DNA of 64,000 nucleotides from an uncultured Parachlamydiaceae bacterium (lineage in GTDB: Bacteria > Chlamydiota > Chlamydiia > Chlamydiales > Parachlamydiaceae), in assembly GCA_963742415.1 (NCBI GenBank), contig CAVULX010000004.1:256001-320000 (forward strand), read 5' to 3'. The position numbers were made by a program, and so were the translations under genes. Shown piece by piece: positions 5,836-64,000 of the stretch; position 1 is the stretch's first letter; every line of letters begins with the position of its first letter. Under the pieces are notes generated by a model, which saw only the letters and a list, made by a program, of their open reading frames with translations, made no database searches and was not told the origin of the DNA.

Positions 5836-6146
5836 GGCTTTGTTGCACGATTCATGCTTTCCTCCTCCTCAATGTTCTCTCTTAATCCAAGGCAAATATT
5901 AAATATAAAATTTGTATATTAGCCGTATATTGCTGAAATTAATCCTGCTTATCTTGCCGCTTGCGATCCTGCACATCCTGTTACTCTTCCCTATTCCTAA
6001 TACTTGCTACTATCCTGTTATCCGGCTGTTGCCAGCTTCCATCCCATCGCAAAGTCGCAAAGATCTAAAACTTCTGCTTTTCTCTTTAAGGAAAGATATG
6101 GCATAATGTATCTTTCATTATTTCGCATTTTACTAGGTTTTTTTTC

Positions 6147-8111
6147 ATGATCGTTAACATCTTTTACATCGGCTTGGCCGTACTTGGTTTGAGCTTATTG
6201 ATCTTTGTCCACGAGTTAGGTCATTACTGGATGGCGCGCCGTGTAGGAATGTCTGTAGAAGTTTTTTCCATCGGCTTCGGGCGCCCTTTAATCTCCTGGA
6301 TTCGAAAAGGAGTCCGATGGCAAGTCGGATGGCTCCCCTTTGGAGGATATGTCAAAATTAAAGGGCAGGAATTAGAAAAAGGGACAGATCCTTATGAGAT
6401 TTCAGATGGCTTTTTTGGCAAGTCTCCCTTGGACAGAATCAAAGTCGCTTTCATGGGCCCTTTTGTTAATATTGTTTTTGCGCTTGTGGTTTTTTGCGGC
6501 TTATGGATGTTAGGCGGACGGGAAAAGAATTTTTCAGATTTTACCCATAAGATTGGTTGGGTGGATCCCCATTCCGAGCTATATACCTCTGGAATTAGAC
6601 CAGGAGATGAAATCAGTGAATACGATCAACGTCCATTTCTCGGGGCGAAGGATAATCTCTATGCTCCTTTGATCGGCGGGGAAGAATTGGAAGTTAAAGG
6701 TTATCGGGTCAATTATCAAACAGGGGACAAGCAGCCCTTCCAACTGAAAGTTAAATCCTATCCCCACCCCTCTGCCCTTGACAAAGGGGTCAAAACCGCA
6801 GGAATTCTCAATAATGCAAATTATATTATCTATAACAAGCTGCCGAATGGTGCTGATAACCCTTTGCCTGAAGGATCCCCTTTGCAAGGGAGCGGCATTG
6901 AATATGGGGACCGGATTGTTTGGGTAGATGGCGAGAATGTTTATTCAGCTGCCGAACTTAGCCATATTTTGAACGATAATCGCGTCTTGTTGACAGTGGA
7001 AAGGGAAGGGAAGACCTTTTTGAGAAGGGTTCCACGGGTTTATGTTCAAGAGCTTAGGCTGGATTCCCATTTTAAAGAGGAGCTCACAGACTGGCAATTT
7101 GAAGCTCAACTTAACAACACCAAGTTTCAAAAGCTATATGCAATTCCGTACAACCTGAGTAACGAATGTGTCGTTGAGAACGAAGCTAAATTTATTGACA
7201 AAGAGAATCAAGAAGAAGCCTTTCCAAGCCACCCTTTTTCTGACTTGGAATTGCCGCTGCAGCCCGGCGATAAAATTATAGCGGTGGATGGCTTTCCTGT
7301 TTTCCGCTCCTATGAACTGTTAAGTCAAATTCAAACCCATCATGTCAATATCATCGTCAAAAGAAATGCCCAAAAGATTGCAATAGTTCCATATGGAGAG
7401 GCCGACGAAGATTTTGACAAAGATGTAGATTGGAAAGATCTTCAAAAGATAGCCTCGAGCATTGGAACTGCCCACCCTTTGACCCATACTGAAGATTTGG
7501 CATTGCTCAAGCCTGTGATACCAAAAATGAGGACAGAATTTACATTATCACCCGAAAAGCAGGCATGGCTGACGACTGAATTGCTGGAGCAGAAGAAAGA
7601 GATCGAAGCGATCGAAGATCCCGAACGGCGGGCGCAAGCTTTGCATCAGCTGGATCTGCGGGAAAAACAGTTGCTGCTTGGGTTTCCCATGGTGCAAGAT
7701 CGAAAAGTGACATACAATCCGGGACCCATTGAACTTTTTGCCAACGTCTTTCAAGAGATCTGGCGCACCTTAACAGCCCTTTTATCTGGAACAATGAATC
7801 CGAAATGGCTTAGCGGGCCTGTTGGAATAGTCCAGGTGATGACCGATAACTCCATGATCAGCTTAAAGGAATCTTTTTTCTGGTTAGGGGCTATCAGCCT
7901 TAACTTAGGAATCCTCAATTTATTACCAATTCCGGTATTAGATGGTGGAACGATCGTAATGACTTTTGTCGAAATGATCACGCGGCGAAAGATAAACCCG
8001 AAGACCATGGAAAAGATCGTGATCCCATTCGCAATATTATTGGTTGTATTTTTTGTCTTTTTGACATATCAAGATCTGACACGTATTTTTGGCCATTTTT
8101 GGCGGTGGTAA
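6147..8111 (+). CDS. rseP: RIP metalloprotease RseP (M50, PDZ domains)
   Basis: HELGH zinc motif, FSIGFG, PFGGYVKI, NLLPIPVLDGG. Confidence 0.95.
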   Translation: MIVNIFYIGLAVLGLSLLIFVHELGHYWMARRVGMSVEVFSIGFGRPLISWIRKGVRWQVGWLPFGGYVKIKGQELEKGTDPYEISDGFFGKSPLDRIKVAFMGPFVNIVFALVVFCGLWMLGGREKNFSDFTHKIGWVDPHSELYTSGIRPGDEISEYDQRPFLGAKDNLYAPLIGGEELEVKGYRVNYQTGDKQPFQLKVKSYPHPSALDKGVKTAGILNNANYIIYNKLPNGADNPLPEGSPLQGSGIEYGDRIVWVDGENVYSAAELSHILNDNRVLLTVEREGKTFLRRVPRVYVQELRLDSHFKEELTDWQFEAQLNNTKFQKLYAIPYNLSNECVVENEAKFIDKENQEEAFPSHPFSDLELPLQPGDKIIAVDGFPVFRSYELLSQIQTHHVNIIVKRNAQKIAIVPYGEADEDFDKDVDWKDLQKIASSIGTAHPLTHTEDLALLKPVIPKMRTEFTLSPEKQAWLTTELLEQKKEIEAIEDPERRAQALHQLDLREKQLLLGFPMVQDRKVTYNPGPIELFANVFQEIWRTLTALLSGTMNPKWLSGPVGIVQVMTDNSMISLKESFFWLGAISLNLGILNLLPIPVLDGGTIVMTFVEMITRRKINPKTMEKIVIPFAILLVVFFVFLTYQDLTRIFGHFWRW

Positions 8112-14711: not shown

Positions 14712-15809
14712 ATGTCTTCATTAGAAATCAGCGAAAAAGCGGCATTTGACTTTATCCGTTACGCCAGTGTTTGGGAAGATGCCGACATTTTATGCGACGC
14801 TTTAGCTCCTTCTTCAAAAAATGGGCGAATCCTCTCGATCGCATCCTCTGGAGATAATGTGCTTGCTCTATTGACTCTAGATCCTGCCGAGATTGTAGCA
14901 GCTGATTTGAGCGAGGCACAGCTAGCTTGTGTGGAAATAAGGATGGCCGCTTTCAAACTTTTAGATCACCCTGCCATATTGGCTTTTCTGGGTGTCACCC
15001 CTTCAACTTCCCGAATGGAAACATATAAGGCGTTAAGGGAGCACCTTTCCCCTCAGGCTCAAAACTATTGGGACGCCCATTCCAATTCCGTTGAAACCGG
15101 CCTGATCCACGCGGGGAAATTTGAACGGTATCTCCGTCTTTTCGGAACAAAAATTCTCCCTTGGATTGAATCTAAGTGGAAACGAAATGCTCTGCTAAAT
15201 CCAAAAGATCTGAGCGAACAAATCTCCTTCTACGATCATCATTGGGATACTTGGCTGTGGCGCTCATTTTTCAAAGTTTTTTTTAGTCGTACAATCATGG
15301 GGTTCTTGGGCCGCGATCCCTCTTTTTTTGATCATGTCGAAGGTTCTGTTGGAGAAAGAATTTTATCCCGCACACGCCATGCGATGACGGCTCTGCCGAC
15401 GTATAGCAACCCTTATCTTGTCTATATCTTGACTGGGAATTATTTACCCAATGCCTTGCCTCGATATTTAAGGCCGCAATTTAAAGAGGAGATCACTTCC
15501 AGGCTAAATCGGGTGGTGTTATTTCAAGGGCCTATCCAAGCGACAGGCAAAGGAAAATTTAACGGGTATAACCTATCGGACATCTTCGAATATATGAATG
15601 AACAAGAATTTAAATCTTGTTATGAAGAACTTCTCATGCAAGCGGCGCCAAAAGCTAGATTGGCTTATTGGAATATGTTGGTTCCAAGAAAAGTTCCGAA
15701 AGAATTTGAAAATCGTGTACATCCCCTCGAGCATTTGGCGAAAACGCTTCATTATCATGATAAGGCCTGGTTCTATCAAGCCTTTCACGTCGAGGAGGTG
15801 AAAGGATAA
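14712..15809 (+). CDS. DUF3419 / BtaA-like SAM-dependent enzyme
   Basis: IRYASVWED, ILSIASSGDN, GKFERY, LSDIFEYM, YWNMLV. Confidence 0.85.
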   Translation: MSSLEISEKAAFDFIRYASVWEDADILCDALAPSSKNGRILSIASSGDNVLALLTLDPAEIVAADLSEAQLACVEIRMAAFKLLDHPAILAFLGVTPSTSRMETYKALREHLSPQAQNYWDAHSNSVETGLIHAGKFERYLRLFGTKILPWIESKWKRNALLNPKDLSEQISFYDHHWDTWLWRSFFKVFFSRTIMGFLGRDPSFFDHVEGSVGERILSRTRHAMTALPTYSNPYLVYILTGNYLPNALPRYLRPQFKEEITSRLNRVVLFQGPIQATGKGKFNGYNLSDIFEYMNEQEFKSCYEELLMQAAPKARLAYWNMLVPRKVPKEFENRVHPLEHLAKTLHYHDKAWFYQAFHVEEVKG

Positions 15810-15810
15810 T

Positions 15811-17208
15811 ATGGGTGATTTTTTTCCAAATTTGATCTCTTTGCCAATATGGAAAAGCGAACTCTGCCGGCAACTTCTCGTAATCCTTTCTTTTATGGCC
15901 ATTTTTTCTCTCGCAGAGCTTTGGCGCTACCTAGGAGCTCCTTCGGTAGAATGGACGCGCAAGTTTGTCCATCTATCTTGCGGCGTGTTGATTGCCTGCT
16001 TCCATTGGATCTTTGCATCTACCTGGTCCGTTGTCATTCTTGGGGTTCTTTTTGCGGCGGTCATGTTTGTTTCGAGGAAGCTTAAGCTTTTTCCCTCTAT
16101 TTATGGGGTTAAGCGATCCTCTCTAGGGGATATTTATTATCTAATCGCTGTTTTTGTGTTATTTGTCATTTCGTTTGATCTTCCCGTGGTTTACTTTATT
16201 TCAGTGATGACGATGACCGTGTCCGATGCTTTAGCTGCAGTCATGGGAACCACCTACCAGCTCAATGTTTACCGGGTAGAAACCCATAAAAAAAGCTTGG
16301 AAGGGTCGATGGCATTTTTTGTTTCCACCTTCCTAATCGTGCATATCTCATTGCTGCTTATGACCGATATGGACCGTCTGCAAAGCATCATGATTGGGCT
16401 TCAAGTCGCGTTAGTAGTGACTTGCTTCGAAGCCATTTGTCTTAATGGCTTTGACAACATTCTGGTCCCGATTGGCACCTATTACCTTCTCGTTAAACTG
16501 TTGCCGATATCTTCAGAGGTCATTGCTTGGCAGCTTTTAGTGCAGCTTGCCATTTTGTTGATCCTCAATTCTATCGTTTGGAAATTTCAGTTTATGTCGA
16601 TCAGCGGAGCCATTGCAGGGCAATTGTTCTTATTTGGAGCTTATGTCTTTGGAGGCCCCGCTTGGTTTGCTATTTCCCTCCTGTCCCTGGCCATTTTTGT
16701 ATCGGTTTTAGCGGTTTTAATCTATCCACACAAAAGGCCTCCCGATGAAAAAGTCTACCAAGTCATAGCTGCTTTTTACTTTTGCATCGTCCCTACATTG
16801 ATATTTCTTGCCAACAACACTTCAGAACAATACATCCACCTTTCTTTCCACGAGAGTAATCCCCATTACTTTTTTGTCCTGTTTCTTGGAGCCATGGCAG
16901 GTCACACAGCAATCGCCTTATGCAGAATCCTCTGGTTATATTCAAAAAGAATCCGTTTGAATTACCTATGGGTCATTACCATCTCACTCGGATGCTTTTT
17001 TCTTATGGTTCCTTTTGGACTTTGGATTCAGACGGGAAAATTGAATTTGAAGGACGTTTTAGTTGTTTTTTGGATCTTGGCTGTTTCTTGTTTGATCTTC
17101 TATGAATGTTTTAAACGTTATACGAAGTTTCATGAGTTTCCCTGGGAATTTCGGATTCAAGCATTGGCTGTTTTTATCGCCGTTATTTCCATATTGCCGA
17201 TTTATTAG
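15811..17208 (+). CDS. Phytol/dolichol-kinase-like (cytidylyltransferase family) membrane protein with extra C-terminal membrane domain
   Basis: RKFVH, SDALAAVMG, KKSLEGS, GFDNILVP; about 230 further hydrophobic residues. Confidence 0.8.
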   Translation: MGDFFPNLISLPIWKSELCRQLLVILSFMAIFSLAELWRYLGAPSVEWTRKFVHLSCGVLIACFHWIFASTWSVVILGVLFAAVMFVSRKLKLFPSIYGVKRSSLGDIYYLIAVFVLFVISFDLPVVYFISVMTMTVSDALAAVMGTTYQLNVYRVETHKKSLEGSMAFFVSTFLIVHISLLLMTDMDRLQSIMIGLQVALVVTCFEAICLNGFDNILVPIGTYYLLVKLLPISSEVIAWQLLVQLAILLILNSIVWKFQFMSISGAIAGQLFLFGAYVFGGPAWFAISLLSLAIFVSVLAVLIYPHKRPPDEKVYQVIAAFYFCIVPTLIFLANNTSEQYIHLSFHESNPHYFFVLFLGAMAGHTAIALCRILWLYSKRIRLNYLWVITISLGCFFLMVPFGLWIQTGKLNLKDVLVVFWILAVSCLIFYECFKRYTKFHEFPWEFRIQALAVFIAVISILPIY

Positions 17209-20838: not shown

Positions 20839-21066
20839 TTATGCCGTCCTTACAGGACTCCATCTTTGTATAATTCCCACCCAGGCCTTCGCTTCGCTCG
20901 ACCTGGGCTATAATATTTTGGCCTTTCAGGCCTCCTATAGCTCCGAAGGCGTTTTTTCGTAACTAGTTTCACGGCCCAGCGGGCCGAAATACCATAGCCC
21001 AGGTCGAGCGAAGCGAAGGCCTGGGTGGGAATTATACAAAGATGGAGTCCTGTAAGGACGGCATAA
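20839..21066. repeat. REP/REPIN-like element: perfect 73-bp inverted arms with internal hairpins
   Basis: 20839-20911 is the reverse complement of 20994-21066. Each arm contains gtcct-tac-aggac and cccagg...cctggg stems. Confidence 0.92.
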
Positions 21067-21074
21067 AAAATCAC

Positions 21075-59642: not shown

Positions 59643-61178
59643 TCAGTCTGTGTATAACTCTTCAAATTTTTTGGCGACTGCTGCGGCGCATTTCTTTCCA
59701 CCGCAGGCTGTACAGGCGATCGATGTTCTTCTTTCAAACCAATCTGCCGGTAAAACAGCTTTTTCATGCTGAATAGCATGAACGAGTTCTGCATAGAGAT
59801 GGGGGTGGCAAGGGCAAATTTGCACCCCTTCTTGAGGCGAGTTTGAGATAATCTCAAAGATTTGATAGCAGGCTTTTCCATATTGGTTTACGATTCTTTC
59901 CACTTGTGAAAGGGGGAGTTGAGTTTCAAGAGAGACTTTTTCCATTTCATTTTTATCTATTGCAAAACTGCAAAGAGGAAGATCTTTTGTGCTACAGAAG
60001 GGAGGGTTTGGGGTGCCCAAATATTTTAAGACAGCATCAACGGTTTTTTCTGCCATGAGGCGATATGTGGTATATTTACCACCCACAAGCGTAATTAAAC
60101 CTGTCGATGACACATCGAGAAGATAATCTCTGCTGATCCGGGAAGGTCCTGCACCCCCTTTTTTGAGAAGGGGGCGCAATCCCGCAAACTTGGCGACAAT
60201 GGAATCTCGGCTTAGGTTTGAATTTGGAAAATAATGTGAGATGGCTTGAAGGAGATAATCCTCATCCTCTTTTAAAACGGATATAGCCTCAAGGTCCCCC
60301 CCATAAGGAGTATCTGTCGTGCCTAAAAGGGAATATCCGTTCCAAGGGATCAGAAAGAAAAAACGGTTGTCTTGCGGAGCGGTTAAAAGGAGGGCATGGG
60401 TTGGATGAAGGGGGGGCAAGACGAGGTGCACCCCTTTTGTGGGATAAATTTCAAAATTTTTCTTACTATTATTAAAAGACAAAATTGAATTGGTCCAAGA
60501 TCCTGTGGCATTGACAACAGATTTTGCAAAAGCGGCATTTTCAGATCCATATAATGTGTTTTTATATCTCACCCCGCCCACTTTGCCGCCTGAAGATTTT
60601 AATAACCCGATAACTTCAGTATAATTTAATAAAAGGGCGCCTAAAGAATCCGCTTCCCGCATGTTTTCAATGACTAACCGATTATCCTGCATTTGAGCAT
60701 CATAATACAGGCACCCCCCCTGCAAGTGATCTTTTTTTAAGAAAGGAAATAGAGAGAGAACATTGTCCAGGGAAAGATTGGAATGAGGGGGCATTTCGCT
60801 TCGGCTAAAGAAATCGTAAAAAGTTAAACCCAGTTTAGTCATCCAGGCTGAAGGGGACATCCCTTGATACAAAGGGATGACAAAGGGGAGGGGGTGTACG
60901 AGATTGGAGGCTGTCTTCATTAAGATAGAGCGTTCTTGAAGAGATTCTCGAACAATTTTAAATTGAAAATTTTGAAGATAACGCAACCCTCCGTGGATGA
61001 GTTTTGAGCTCTTCGAGCTTGTTCCGCCGGCAAAGTCCCCCTTTTCGAAAAGGATCGTCTTCAATCCTCTCAAAGCGGCATCGCGAGCAATGGCTACGCC
61101 GTTGATTCCCCCTCCAATGACAGCTAAGTCAAAGAGTTCATGTGCCTGCGAAGCGGACTGCATAAATGATTCATTCAT
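59643..61178 (-). CDS. glpD: FAD-dependent glycerol-3-phosphate dehydrogenase
   Basis: IGGGING, GTSSKSSKLIHGGLRYL, GTTD, GGKYTTYR. Confidence 0.93.
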   Translation of the reverse strand: MNESFMQSASQAHELFDLAVIGGGINGVAIARDAALRGLKTILFEKGDFAGGTSSKSSKLIHGGLRYLQNFQFKIVRESLQERSILMKTASNLVHPLPFVIPLYQGMSPSAWMTKLGLTFYDFFSRSEMPPHSNLSLDNVLSLFPFLKKDHLQGGCLYYDAQMQDNRLVIENMREADSLGALLLNYTEVIGLLKSSGGKVGGVRYKNTLYGSENAAFAKSVVNATGSWTNSILSFNNSKKNFEIYPTKGVHLVLPPLHPTHALLLTAPQDNRFFFLIPWNGYSLLGTTDTPYGGDLEAISVLKEDEDYLLQAISHYFPNSNLSRDSIVAKFAGLRPLLKKGGAGPSRISRDYLLDVSSTGLITLVGGKYTTYRLMAEKTVDAVLKYLGTPNPPFCSTKDLPLCSFAIDKNEMEKVSLETQLPLSQVERIVNQYGKACYQIFEIISNSPQEGVQICPCHPHLYAELVHAIQHEKAVLPADWFERRTSIACTACGGKKCAAAVAKKFEELYTD

Positions 61179-62091
61179 TCAATGAATTGAAAATTTCATC
61201 CAATTTCCCTTCGATAGAAGAGAGAATTTCTGCATAATATTTTGGGTGATGGGCTCTAATCCACCGTCCAAATCTTTTATGGGCAATTTTTTTTAAGTCC
61301 TTTTTAAATTTTTCAGAGTCTTGCATTTGTTGATTTAATGCAAGTCTTCCGACATCGATATGGATCGCTTTATTACCTACAAAACCTGTATTTGACATCA
61401 CGTTGTGGTCGCTGTCAGTTAATCCCTTTTTATATTCATCAGCATAAAGTTCAAAAATATGATTGATATACAGTTTGGCCGTTTCAACTTCGTGGCGGTT
61501 GAGGAGAGTTTTAAGCACATCTTTTGTCATTACGGCCTTTCGTTGAAGGATGAAAAAGGTGTTATCTAAATCGATGGGATGCTTCAGCCCATACCGGTCC
61601 TTAACGACGATTTGATTGTATAGATTTTTTGTTTTGGATAGATGGGTCCAAACAAGGCCTGTATTGTCAGCATCCTTTTCAAAGGCAAGACGATACCCTG
61701 CAAAAATGCGTAAAAACCTTTTTTGTTTCCATTTTTCATGTCGAAGCTTGAATTGGGTAAAGGGAAAAGTGTTTGGGAGCTTGTCTATGAAAGAGGTCTT
61801 TAGATAAGTAAATTTGATGAACTTTAAGACATAGTCTTGATCTTGACTTACAAAAGCATACGTTTGATGCCCTTTGCCAAGATAAAAAAAGGGTTTGGCT
61901 AGGATTTCTTGAATCTCTTTCGGTGGTTGAGAAAATAGCGCAAAGTCGTCTGCAGGAGGAGCGGCGAGTTCATAAGAAATGTTATTCAGGTTGAATTCAT
62001 CCTGAAGAAACCTATATAAAAAGAAAGAAGAGAAGAGAGTTGATAAGCAGATGGAAAAAATGATTACATACCGCATAAAACAAATGCCCAA
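61171..62091 (-). CDS. Membrane-anchored protein-kinase-like-fold hypothetical protein
   Basis: N-terminal TM, LGKGHQTYAF...VLKF, DSDHNVMSNTG, HIDVG. Confidence 0.6.
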   Translation of the reverse strand: MGICFMRYVIIFSICLSTLFSSFFLYRFLQDEFNLNNISYELAAPPADDFALFSQPPKEIQEILAKPFFYLGKGHQTYAFVSQDQDYVLKFIKFTYLKTSFIDKLPNTFPFTQFKLRHEKWKQKRFLRIFAGYRLAFEKDADNTGLVWTHLSKTKNLYNQIVVKDRYGLKHPIDLDNTFFILQRKAVMTKDVLKTLLNRHEVETAKLYINHIFELYADEYKKGLTDSDHNVMSNTGFVGNKAIHIDVGRLALNQQMQDSEKFKKDLKKIAHKRFGRWIRAHHPKYYAEILSSIEGKLDEIFNSLNE

Positions 62092-62217
62092 AAAATGAAA
62101 GAGGTAATGTTATCAGATTATCCCTATTTTGTTAAATTTAGTATTTTTTGTGGATTTTTTTCAGAAATGTGATGTACAATCTCAGATTATTTTTTGTTTA
62201 AATGAGTTTGGAGGAAT

Positions 62218-62961
62218 ATGTGGACGACAGATACGAGCTTTCTTAGGGAATTATCGAATTTATCAAGTAATACCGATTTCACTAGCTTTGACAATATTTT
62301 TGGCAATAATGAGAAAGAACAGGATCGCTATTCTCAAATCTGGGAAGGAGCTTTCAATACGCCGCCAGTTGTTGCTGAAGTTTCGTGTCTTTCCAACCGC
62401 AACATGTTTCCAATCAATGGAACTCAGGGGGAAAATGACGATTATAAAAGAAAAGAGGAAGAAGGCAATCCCTATGTGCTTACAGACAATCAGACTAACT
62501 CGAATCTAAATGAATTGAAGAGTACAAGTGAAAGTAATTCCCACAATTCGGCTCTAAAAGAAGTTAAAATAAATTTGTCGCTAAACCAAAGAAAAAAAAA
62601 TTTATGGACTATAGATGAAGATGAGAAGTTAAAACAAGCAATGGAAAAAAGCCACCCGAGTGGTAGCGTGAGTCAAAGACGTGCAGGGGATTGGAAGAAA
62701 ATAACAGACATTTTCCACGGAAGGCGAACTGTAGCTGCGTGTAAAAAAAGGGGAGAAGTATTAAAACTCAGAGGTGGGACAGAAAAAAAAACGAAACGAA
62801 ATTGGACGGATCAAGAAGATATGAAATTAAAGGTAGCCATGCAATACCACCTTTCAATGAGAAATTCTCAGCTAAAGCAGGAAGAATGGGAAAAGATAGC
62901 AAAAAGTTTAAATCGAACAGTGAGTGCATGTAAAAATAGAGTAACGAAATTGAAATATTAA
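62218..62961 (+). CDS. Myb/SANT-repeat protein (two repeats), eukaryote-like
   Basis: WTIDEDEKL...DWKKI...RTVAACKKR and WTDQEDMKL...EWEKIAKSLNRTVSACKNR; GGAGG RBS. Confidence 0.85.
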   Translation: MWTTDTSFLRELSNLSSNTDFTSFDNIFGNNEKEQDRYSQIWEGAFNTPPVVAEVSCLSNRNMFPINGTQGENDDYKRKEEEGNPYVLTDNQTNSNLNELKSTSESNSHNSALKEVKINLSLNQRKKNLWTIDEDEKLKQAMEKSHPSGSVSQRRAGDWKKITDIFHGRRTVAACKKRGEVLKLRGGTEKKTKRNWTDQEDMKLKVAMQYHLSMRNSQLKQEEWEKIAKSLNRTVSACKNRVTKLKY

Positions 62962-63359
62962 AACTAAAAGCAATTACGTACCTTCAAAGTTCTCTACGCA
63001 TGTAGAAATCCGGTCGGGATCAAATGCAGGGGAAATTATAACGGGGACAAGCAATAATTTCAAAAGAAGCCTCTTGTAAATAGCAGTATGCGTAAAACGC
63101 AAAGGACTCAAAAATAGAAAATTTCATAAAAAGTACGGAATCAGGCTATTCCCATTGTAGGATGTTCTACAGAGAATCACATAGCGATACCATTTTATCC
63201 TTTTTTTTAAATTTAGTATTTTTATAGATTTTTTTTATAAACGTTTAATAAAATGCCAATTCTTATGCCGAAAGTGACTCAAAAATTGGGATTTTGAAGC
63301 GTTCCAAATCGCAATTTTTGAGAAACCTTCGGTATAAATTGGTTTGGAGGATTGGAATT

Positions 63360-64000
63360 ATGGGAGAGGTCAATTTTGGTTTTTCATTTATATCGGCGAC
63401 TGCATCTAATTTCGACTTTGGCAGCGGCAAAGATTGGGACAGTAATAGGGAAATCCCAACCTCAGAAATTTCCCAAATTTGGAATGAATGCGTGGGAAGA
63501 CGTGACGTAGAAACTCCGCTCAACAGCGAACCCCAAATTTTGTCAAATTGTTCCGATTCTGTCCCTTTTACACCATGGAATGGGGATGAACGTCCTCAAC
63601 ATTCTGTCAAACAACTAACAGAGACAGAGCATTCGACCTTCTATACAACTTTTAAGCTGGCTAATACCCGTGCAGGTGAAAGTCATCCAGAAGATGACTT
63701 GGTTGAAAATAAGGTCGAGCAAGATTCGCAGTCAAAAAGAAAAATTTGGACGGAGCAGGAACATAAAAAGCTAGAGCAAGTAATGAAGAAATATGGCCCA
63801 GACAGAGGCAAAATTGGAAGAACTAAAAAACAGTGGAAGAAAATTGCGTGCGAAATGAGGCGCCCCCCAGAAGCGTGTAAAAAAAGGTGGGAAATTTTAA
63901 AAGGACAAAATCCACGGCTAGAAAAAAAACTGAAATCACGAGCTTGGACTCCTCAAGAGGAAAAGGTTTTAAAAACATCTTTGGCATACTTCCATTCACA
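63360..64000 (+). CDS. Second Myb/SANT-repeat protein, partial at the right edge; not in ORF track
   Basis: GGAGG then ATG 63360; the frame is open to the end. Contains WTEQEHKKLEQVMKKYG...QWKKIACEMRRPPEACKKRW and then AWTPQEEKVL. Confidence 0.85.
   Translation, partial: MGEVNFGFSFISATASNFDFGSGKDWDSNREIPTSEISQIWNECVGRRDVETPLNSEPQILSNCSDSVPFTPWNGDERPQHSVKQLTETEHSTFYTTFKLANTRAGESHPEDDLVENKVEQDSQSKRKIWTEQEHKKLEQVMKKYGPDRGKIGRTKKQWKKIACEMRRPPEACKKRWEILKGQNPRLEKKLKSRAWTPQEEKVLKTSLAYFHS

Follow-up and report, generated by a model that had tools for sequence, protein, structure and literature searches.

What are genes for Myb-repeat proteins of a eukaryotic kind doing on the chromosome of a chlamydia? 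The question arises at the end of a 64,000-nucleotide stretch of DNA from an uncultured Parachlamydiaceae bacterium (contig CAVULX010000004.1, positions 256,001 to 320,000; hereafter 'the window', C4:256001-320000 of a 2.69-Mb, four-contig genome, G000), where a reading of the letters alone, here called the original prediction, had placed two adjacent same-strand genes of this type and had suspected that the array might run on beyond the window. Both open reading frames (ORFs) are present on the + strand, and when we followed the array past the window end, further paralogs appeared in the adjoining genome sequence; there are four same-strand (+) paralogs in tandem, M1 to M4, of which the window shows only M1 and the first part of M2 (Table 1). 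Judged by sequence profiles, their repeats are of the eukaryotic Myb type, and the reading that we favor, although we regard the case for it as evenly balanced, is that M1-M4 are secreted nuclear effectors that would regulate host transcription or chromatin.

We propose that the parts of these proteins would divide this work among themselves. The polar N-terminus would direct type III secretion; the lysine- and arginine-rich (K/R) patches beside the repeats, strongest in M3, would act as nuclear localization signals (NLSs); the Myb repeats would bind host DNA; and (S/C)(Q/R)IW in the acidic half, as a conserved amphipathic helix, would recruit a host cofactor. The four paralogs would have arisen by local duplication, M3 and M4 having retained the second repeat only.

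M1-M4 are intact bacterial genes

A GGAGG ribosome-binding site stands ahead of every ATG from M1 to M4 and all four frames are intact, which shows that these genes carry bacterial translation signals. The ORF of M2 as listed begins at TTG 63294, and ATG 63360 carries GGAGG 9 nt upstream; because of this site, and because the N-terminus read from there aligns with those of the three paralogs, the true start of M2 is most likely ATG 63360. The original prediction had remarked that this second gene was missing from the ORF track; the gene is real, and its absence is probably explained by its overrunning the window end. M1 and M2 are 38% identical in the four-paralog alignment.

The array sits on a 1.34-Mb contig amid ordinary bacterial genes, and its G+C content (0.37-0.41 vs. 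0.429 ± 0.051 for the genome's long ORFs) is close enough to that of the genome to suggest that M1-M4 are not recent arrivals. Contamination or a chimeric assembly was considered as a source of the array and was ruled out by its depth in the 1.34-Mb contig, by the bacterial ribosome-binding sites and by the flanking dispersed repeat, which is native to the genome.

The repeats are of the eukaryotic Myb type

The assignment is carried by sequence profiles. In Pfam, M1 matched PF13921 at 2e-12 and PF00249 at 7.8e-11, M2 matched PF00249 at 2.8e-13 and PF13921 at 2.1e-10, each protein with two matched stretches, and M3 matched PF13921 at 2.7e-7 and PF00249 at 1.9e-6; in bits, set against curated cut-offs of 22.9 and 24.4, the scores are 47.5/42.4 for M1, 50.2/41.0 for M2 and 31.1/28.3 for M3. 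The Myb/SANT repeats that had been predicted by eye are thus borne out by the HMMER check, which puts M1 and M2 above the Pfam cut-offs and well beyond chance. When a profile of the repeats was run against the sequences of solved structures, 26 distinct sequences were returned at E<=1, all of them eukaryotic Myb/SANT, the best being c-Myb (1.1e-7), Reb1 (1e-6), SNAPC4 (4.1e-5) and Cef1 (5.5e-5). The same profile fits R1R2 and R2R3 of c-Myb about equally (22.0 and 19.7 bits, respectively), so that 'R2R3-like' in the original prediction can stand for no more than a tandem two-repeat Myb. A search of the ESM Atlas gave eukaryotic Myb clusters only (0.78-0.82, lead-level matches) and returned no match to M3's N-terminal part.

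The full tryptophan triad is found only in repeat a of M2 (W130, W159 and W177), the very repeat in which three tryptophans had been noticed at the outset. In the other repeats two tryptophans are followed by G, V or T (F in M3), and the M4 repeat is without two of its tryptophan positions. The repeats are basic in all four proteins (isoelectric point, pI, 9.6-10.3), and a basic charge is what a Myb that binds DNA, in contrast to SANT, should show, pI being a proxy only.

An AlphaFold2 model of M2, built on a 22-row alignment, predicts two three-helix bundles (helices at residues 132-144, 156-166 and 170-181, and at 198-212, 221-231 and 235-251). Over residues 131-252 the means of 10-residue blocks lie at 85-96 in predicted local distance difference test score (pLDDT), except for 64 at the inter-repeat linker (181-190). 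The top match of this model in VIA-align was the tandem Myb of CDC5L (Z 8.0, 100 residues aligned, root-mean-square deviation 11.0); the structure prediction that had been suggested as a check therefore does return the tandem Myb fold, though homeodomains tie with it. We read the fold search as agreeing with Myb without deciding for it; it is the sequence profiles that would decide.

In their two adjacent three-helix repeats, M1 and M2 would resemble c-Myb R1R2R3 (PDB 1h88/1h89), Schizosaccharomyces pombe Reb1 (5eyb), SNAPC4 (7xur) and Cef1/CDC5L (6jui, 7dvq_L), and the array shares with eukaryotic tandem Myb proteins the W...W...(W) cores and the basic C-K/R-x-R-W recognition helix. There are also differences. 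Each M1-M4 repeat has an insertion of 9-10 residues between helix 1 and helix 2, owing to which the first and second tryptophans lie 28-29 residues apart, a longer spacing than in c-Myb; of the four repeats in M1 and M2, three have another residue in place of the third tryptophan; and, unlike eukaryotic tandem Myb genes, M1-M4 are chromosomal in a bacterium and have bacterial translation signals, no eukaryotic orthologue being named.

A shared N-terminal module and basic patches

Aligned, the four proteins follow a common plan, in which a polar N-terminus beginning M-[W/G]-x-[V/T] leads to an invariant Asn and to (S/C)(Q/R)IW, followed by a variable linker, K/R patches and the repeat or repeats, of which there are two in M1 and M2 and the second alone in M3 and M4. 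In this build they resemble eukaryotic transcription factors. Within the N-terminal motif, I41 and W42 (M1 numbering) are invariant across the four paralogs. With a pI of 4.1-4.5 the N-terminal halves are acidic, and they are rich in S, T, N and Q, with 8-14 of the first 30 residues being S, T or N; the acidic, Ser/Asn-rich N-termini with a shared SQIW that the original prediction described are thus present in M1 and M2 (pI 4.5 in both). According to AlphaFold2, residues 1-125 of M2 would be disordered apart from a helix over SQIW. No signal peptide or membrane segment was found in M1-M4, the maximum 19-residue Kyte-Doolittle value being <=0.84.

K/R clusters flank the repeats, and the three patches picked out beforehand (QRKKN, KKTKRN and SKRKI) were all found. 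The strongest patch is that of M3, where KKRKR is followed after 9 residues by KRKKR; classical NLS patterns are fitted by both of these and by KKTKR in M1.

The linkers have diverged, and the N-terminal motif and the recognition-helix region (A-C-K/R-x-R/K) are conserved, a pattern that points to selection on separate modules. This pattern bears on a less eventful history, in which the array would be the drifting leftover of a gene transfer from a eukaryote, duplicated locally and without any function directed at host or bacterium. Much in the array looks the part, since the M4 repeat is without two tryptophan positions and fails Pfam, the first repeat is missing in M3 and M4, the linkers are unconserved, dispersed repeat elements border the region and only one assembly is known to encode the proteins. 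Mere drift sits poorly, however, with four intact frames that have ribosome-binding sites, with a motif and an A-C-K/R-x-R/K region kept while the linkers diverge, and with a base composition close to that of the genome, and we consider it improbable.

Secretion machinery, and the case for a role inside the bacterium

Parts of a type III secretion apparatus are encoded in the genome, together with other signs of life inside host cells. It holds two FHIPEP export-gate genes (842 and 722 bits), secretin-domain ORFs of 1103 and 912 residues and four TLC nucleotide transporters (ATP/ADP translocases; 0/14 control genomes have any), and we take the organism for an environmental chlamydia that lives, probably obligately, inside cells.

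Proteins with such repeats could nevertheless serve at home, as regulators or nucleoid-associated proteins for the bacterium's own chromosome that never leave the cell. The repeats are basic helix-turn-helix domains, the genes have bacterial ribosome-binding sites, no proven type of export signal is present in M1-M4, Myb-like domains occur in genuine bacterial proteins (the PF00249 control in Bacillus subtilis), and a palindrome just upstream of M2 could serve as an operator. We nevertheless hold a purely internal role to be unlikely, if a serious contender: no bacterial family of NCBIfam was matched by any of the four proteins at E<=0.1; an acidic, disordered N-terminal half of ~125 residues is unusual for bacterial regulators; the N-terminal profile found no orthologues in 72 same-family genomes, and M2 was matched in 1/40 relatives; and a lineage-specific tandem expansion fits host-interaction families better than core regulators.

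Distribution of the array proteins and of Myb in the phylum

When 5.8 billion proteins were searched by a word index, nothing but proteins of the own assembly came back (1/167 candidates for M2 and 3/3234 for the four-paralog profile). HMMER with M1 against 1.84 billion representatives gave 39 proteins at E<=1e-3, namely M1, M2 and 37 others. In each of these 37 foreign matches the best stretch lies within query residues 83-246, that is, in the repeats only, and none covers residues 1-82; the nearest library proteins to M1 are multi-repeat Myb proteins, and 0/37 foreign matches are >=50% identical to any chlamydial ORF retrieved. A hidden Markov model (HMM) of the N-terminal 75 residues matched only the four array members in the own genome and found the module in 0/72 other same-family genomes. 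M2, run against 40 related genomes, found one weak relative, a 221-residue two-repeat protein in G003 (2.7e-4). In a soil metagenome, two identical 151-nt contigs (depth 2) span the M2 upstream region and N-terminus, and these may be from the source sample rather than independent support; a look for RNA runs that hold the array turned up none. With an N-terminal module found nowhere else in the searches run, M1-M4 plausibly belong with the eukaryote-like effector candidates, or nucleomodulins.

One phage profile does match. The original prediction had staked itself on ordinary bacterial or phage helix-turn-helix regulators not being the closest homologs, and phrog_323 ('transcriptional regulator, D5-like') matched the Myb region of M1 at 6.2e-7 and that of M2 at 8.6e-7, which is five to six orders weaker than Pfam Myb; there was no phrog_323 match in M3 or M4. 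M1-M4 might on this account be transcription regulators of a phage or other mobile element, to which the MITE-like repeat (resembling a miniature inverted-repeat transposable element) directly after M4 and an insertion sequence (IS) in the Myb array of another genome, G288, would add some color. The IS in G288, however, interrupts a Myb gene and does not carry it; the repeat profile found no relative on viral contigs; no integrase, transposase or phage structural gene was seen in the 28 kb around the array, where translations were read by eye with no family search; and the phage profile falls far short of the Pfam Myb models in strength of match. We therefore regard a mobile-element origin of these regulators as very improbable.

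Across the phylum, PF00249 was detected in 21/301 sampled genomes including the own (17 above the cut-off), with 10/32 genomes of the own family having it vs. 10/268 in other families. Separate tandem Myb arrays occur in three of the sampled genomes (the own genome, G211 and G288), and in every one of them the array proteins have a distinct conserved N-terminus; together these counts suggest that the Myb array is not a one-off. In G211 (C3:70001-86000), ~8 small two-repeat Myb genes stand in tandem and share an S-x-S-F-S-x-x-I N-terminal motif and P-x-K-R-Q-K patches. In G288 (C1:1209001-1229000) there are at least 7 Myb genes, encoding proteins of up to 825 residues with up to 13 canonical repeats (iterated HMM), a shared MNIGISNHY N-terminus and a PLKKFKK patch. 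The own genome has a further Myb gene at C3:202161-203066, which is canonical with four repeats and a PKRKRE patch (PF00249 at 1.6e-28), and a tandem Myb pair on the - strand at C3:887168-888391, whose products of 168 and 161 residues from the first Met (178- and 171-residue open frames) share an N-terminus.

An NLS-like K/R pattern is present in 30/46 chlamydial Myb ORFs vs. 168/1220 (14%) of the own genome's frames of 150-350 residues, a comparison in which the paralogs are non-independent and DNA binders are basic anyway. No clear Sec signal was seen among the 46 chlamydial Myb ORFs inspected, with one doubtful exception.

Two observations were made beside these arrays. About 3 kb from the Myb array of G211 lies a gene for a 365-residue protein that looks F-box/LRR (leucine-rich repeat)-like by eye, with no family search. 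In G288 one Myb gene is interrupted by an insertion whose products, again judged by eye, are serine-recombinase-like and TnpB-like (15248-17013 within L035, which is C1:1209001-1229000).

Weighing a role in the host nucleus

Several results weigh against M1-M4 being nuclear effectors. The proteins are known from one assembly only, so that conservation among orthologues cannot be called on. Myb-like helix-turn-helix domains also serve bacteria, as the positive PF00249 control in B. subtilis shows, and the partial phrog_323 matches in M1 and M2, which cover profile positions 85-189 of 319, count against the reading as well. M4 has no Pfam Myb match, because of which its repeat is considered degenerate, and its array membership is given by N-terminal homology (HMM 3.3e-35) and by alignment to repeat b. 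The basic patches may be mere DNA-contact arms beside a DNA-binding domain, and the M2 helix over the SQIW motif (residues 34-45) is predicted by AlphaFold2 at low confidence (pLDDT ~53). In Foldseek the M2 model gave Cdc5, Reb1 and c-Myb as its best rows, all weak (best E 0.038), and single homeodomains tie at Z 7.5-7.9 in VIA-align, the fold not being Myb-specific. Finally, in a single-repeat tree (341 repeats, 44 columns) four of the five array repeats are adjacent and everything else is at least 1.25 substitutions per site away; this tree names no donor and is too short to name one or to separate one acquisition from several.

We also considered a narrower version of the nuclear-effector reading, in which M1-M4, once injected, would activate transcription in a sequence-specific manner, as chlamydial equivalents of TAL effectors made from a eukaryotic Myb domain, with the IW helix as an activation or cofactor-docking motif and with paralogs that read different host promoters. 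So specific a function we regard as doubtful. Were it true, the arrays of G211 and G288 would be host-specific toolkits that help to set which protists each lineage exploits.

Nucleomodulins that mimic host nuclear factors include the TAL effectors of Xanthomonas and the SET-domain effectors NUE of Chlamydia and RomA of Legionella, and the TAL proteins have an acidic activation region as well. The logic proposed here for M1-M4 would be like theirs, i.e. type III or IV delivery, an NLS and a domain directed at DNA or chromatin; the DNA-binding fold is a different one, and the delivery of M1-M4 is putative. Known nucleomodulins mostly modify chromatin or bind DNA via bacterial inventions, e.g. 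TAL repeats. If M1-M4 are indeed nuclear effectors, a borrowed eukaryotic Myb domain joined to an acidic region and NLS-like patches would amount to a direct mimic of a transcription factor, aimed at protist hosts, in which host manipulation is poorly understood.

Two further comparisons place the array among bacterial protein families. Amoeba-associated chlamydiae are said to have expanded F-box, BTB, LRR and ubiquitin-related families, reportedly described by Domman and colleagues in 2014, and the array resembles these families in its patchy, lineage-specific tandem expansion in the same genome group; unlike these protein-interaction and ubiquitination modules, Myb is of the sequence-specific DNA-binder type. 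The RsfA family of Bacillus comprises bacterial Myb-like regulators and, like M1-M4, has a Myb-like helix-turn-helix in a bacterium; unlike RsfA-type regulators, M1-M4 combine K/R patches with a long half that is acidic and disordered, and they are without an NCBIfam match at the threshold given above.

Myb-like transcription factors are listed among the eukaryote-like proteins of endosymbiotic Clostridia of termite-gut protists (PMC10579323), and the same passages state that eukaryote-like proteins of that kind occur in Legionella and Chlamydiota. Those clostridial proteins are like M1-M4 in being Myb-type, encoded by intracellular bacteria of protists and read as acquired from eukaryotes; M1-M4 differ in having their own N-terminal module and a four-gene array, and the passages seen contain no analysis of chlamydial Myb. 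In a review of nucleomodulins (PMC7819608), Myb appears only in a reference title, on the host target MYB30. Beyond one passing sentence, full-text searches found no description of chlamydial Myb-repeat proteins; subscription journals and the supplementary tables of chlamydial pan-genome studies, which lay outside these searches, may list them.

Upstream elements and neighborhood

The features of the array are collected in Table 1.

Table 1. Genes, motifs, repeats and upstream elements of the M1-M4 array (C4, contig of the array).
Feature	Position in window	Genome coordinates	Strand	Description
M1	62218-62961	C4:318218-318961	+	247 residues; ORF; acidic disordered N-terminal half, K/R patches, two Myb repeats
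M2	63360..64000	C4:319360-320118	+	252 residues; 213 codons inside the window; end at would-be window position 64118
M3		C4:320285-321148	+	287 residues; beyond the window
M4		C4:321208-321855	+	215 residues; beyond the window
M1 N-terminal motif	62329..62358		+	YSQIWEGAF, W42; from the alignment
M2 N-terminal motif	63465..63497		+	EISQIWNECVG; only helix predicted in the disordered half
M1 Myb repeat a	62599..62763		+	Residues 128-182; pI 9.7
M1 Myb repeat b	62797..62958		+	Residues 194-247; pI 9.8
M2 Myb repeat a	63738..63905		+	Residues 127-182; all three Trp; pI 10.3
M2 Myb repeat b	63939..64000, continuing past the window end		+	Residues 194-252
M1 upstream region	62127..62217		+	Holds a 44-nt block also kept upstream of M2 (direct repeat families D6, D14) and a GGAGGA ribosome-binding site
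M2 upstream block	63202..63245		+	73% identical to the block before M1; family D6
Palindrome just upstream of M2	63263..63337		no strand	36-nt arms, 83% complementary, 3-nt loop; inverted repeat I2

One upstream block is common to M1 and M2 and another to M3 and M4 (families D6, D14 and D5), and this sharing within each pair fits a local duplication of whole gene units. A scan with the sigma-70 consensus found no + strand site before the array genes, and the total number of sites equaled the shuffle expectation. The palindrome upstream of M2 has copies at C3:196151, C3:509961 and C4:828159 (76-85% identical, on both strands; genome search) and partial copies at C4:436300 and C4:318127; an operator or a terminator would be as conceivable here as a small mobile repeat.

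Next to M1 on its upstream side, the - strand carries an ORF of 306 residues (61171-62091) whose N-terminus is hydrophobic and which matches no Pfam family at E<=0.1. Read by eye from translations, the 28 kb around the array include a glycerol-3-phosphate-dehydrogenase-like (glpD-like) gene and a membrane transporter. The glpD-like neighbor has its sole usable relative, 51% identical, in a metagenome-assembled genome labelled Parachlamydiaceae, which shares no other gene of the array region.

The MITE-like dispersed repeat directly after M4 is ~380 bp long (C4:321890-322280; 5890-6280 within L009), contains 98-nt inverted arms with 90% complementarity, and has no transposase seen adjoining it. 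The genome contains 110 matching pieces, full or partial, many of them 85-96% identical, with tandem sub-repeats at C3:244065-244551 and C4:172845-173434; a diverged copy lies inside the window itself, at ~20839-21068 (C4:276839-277068).

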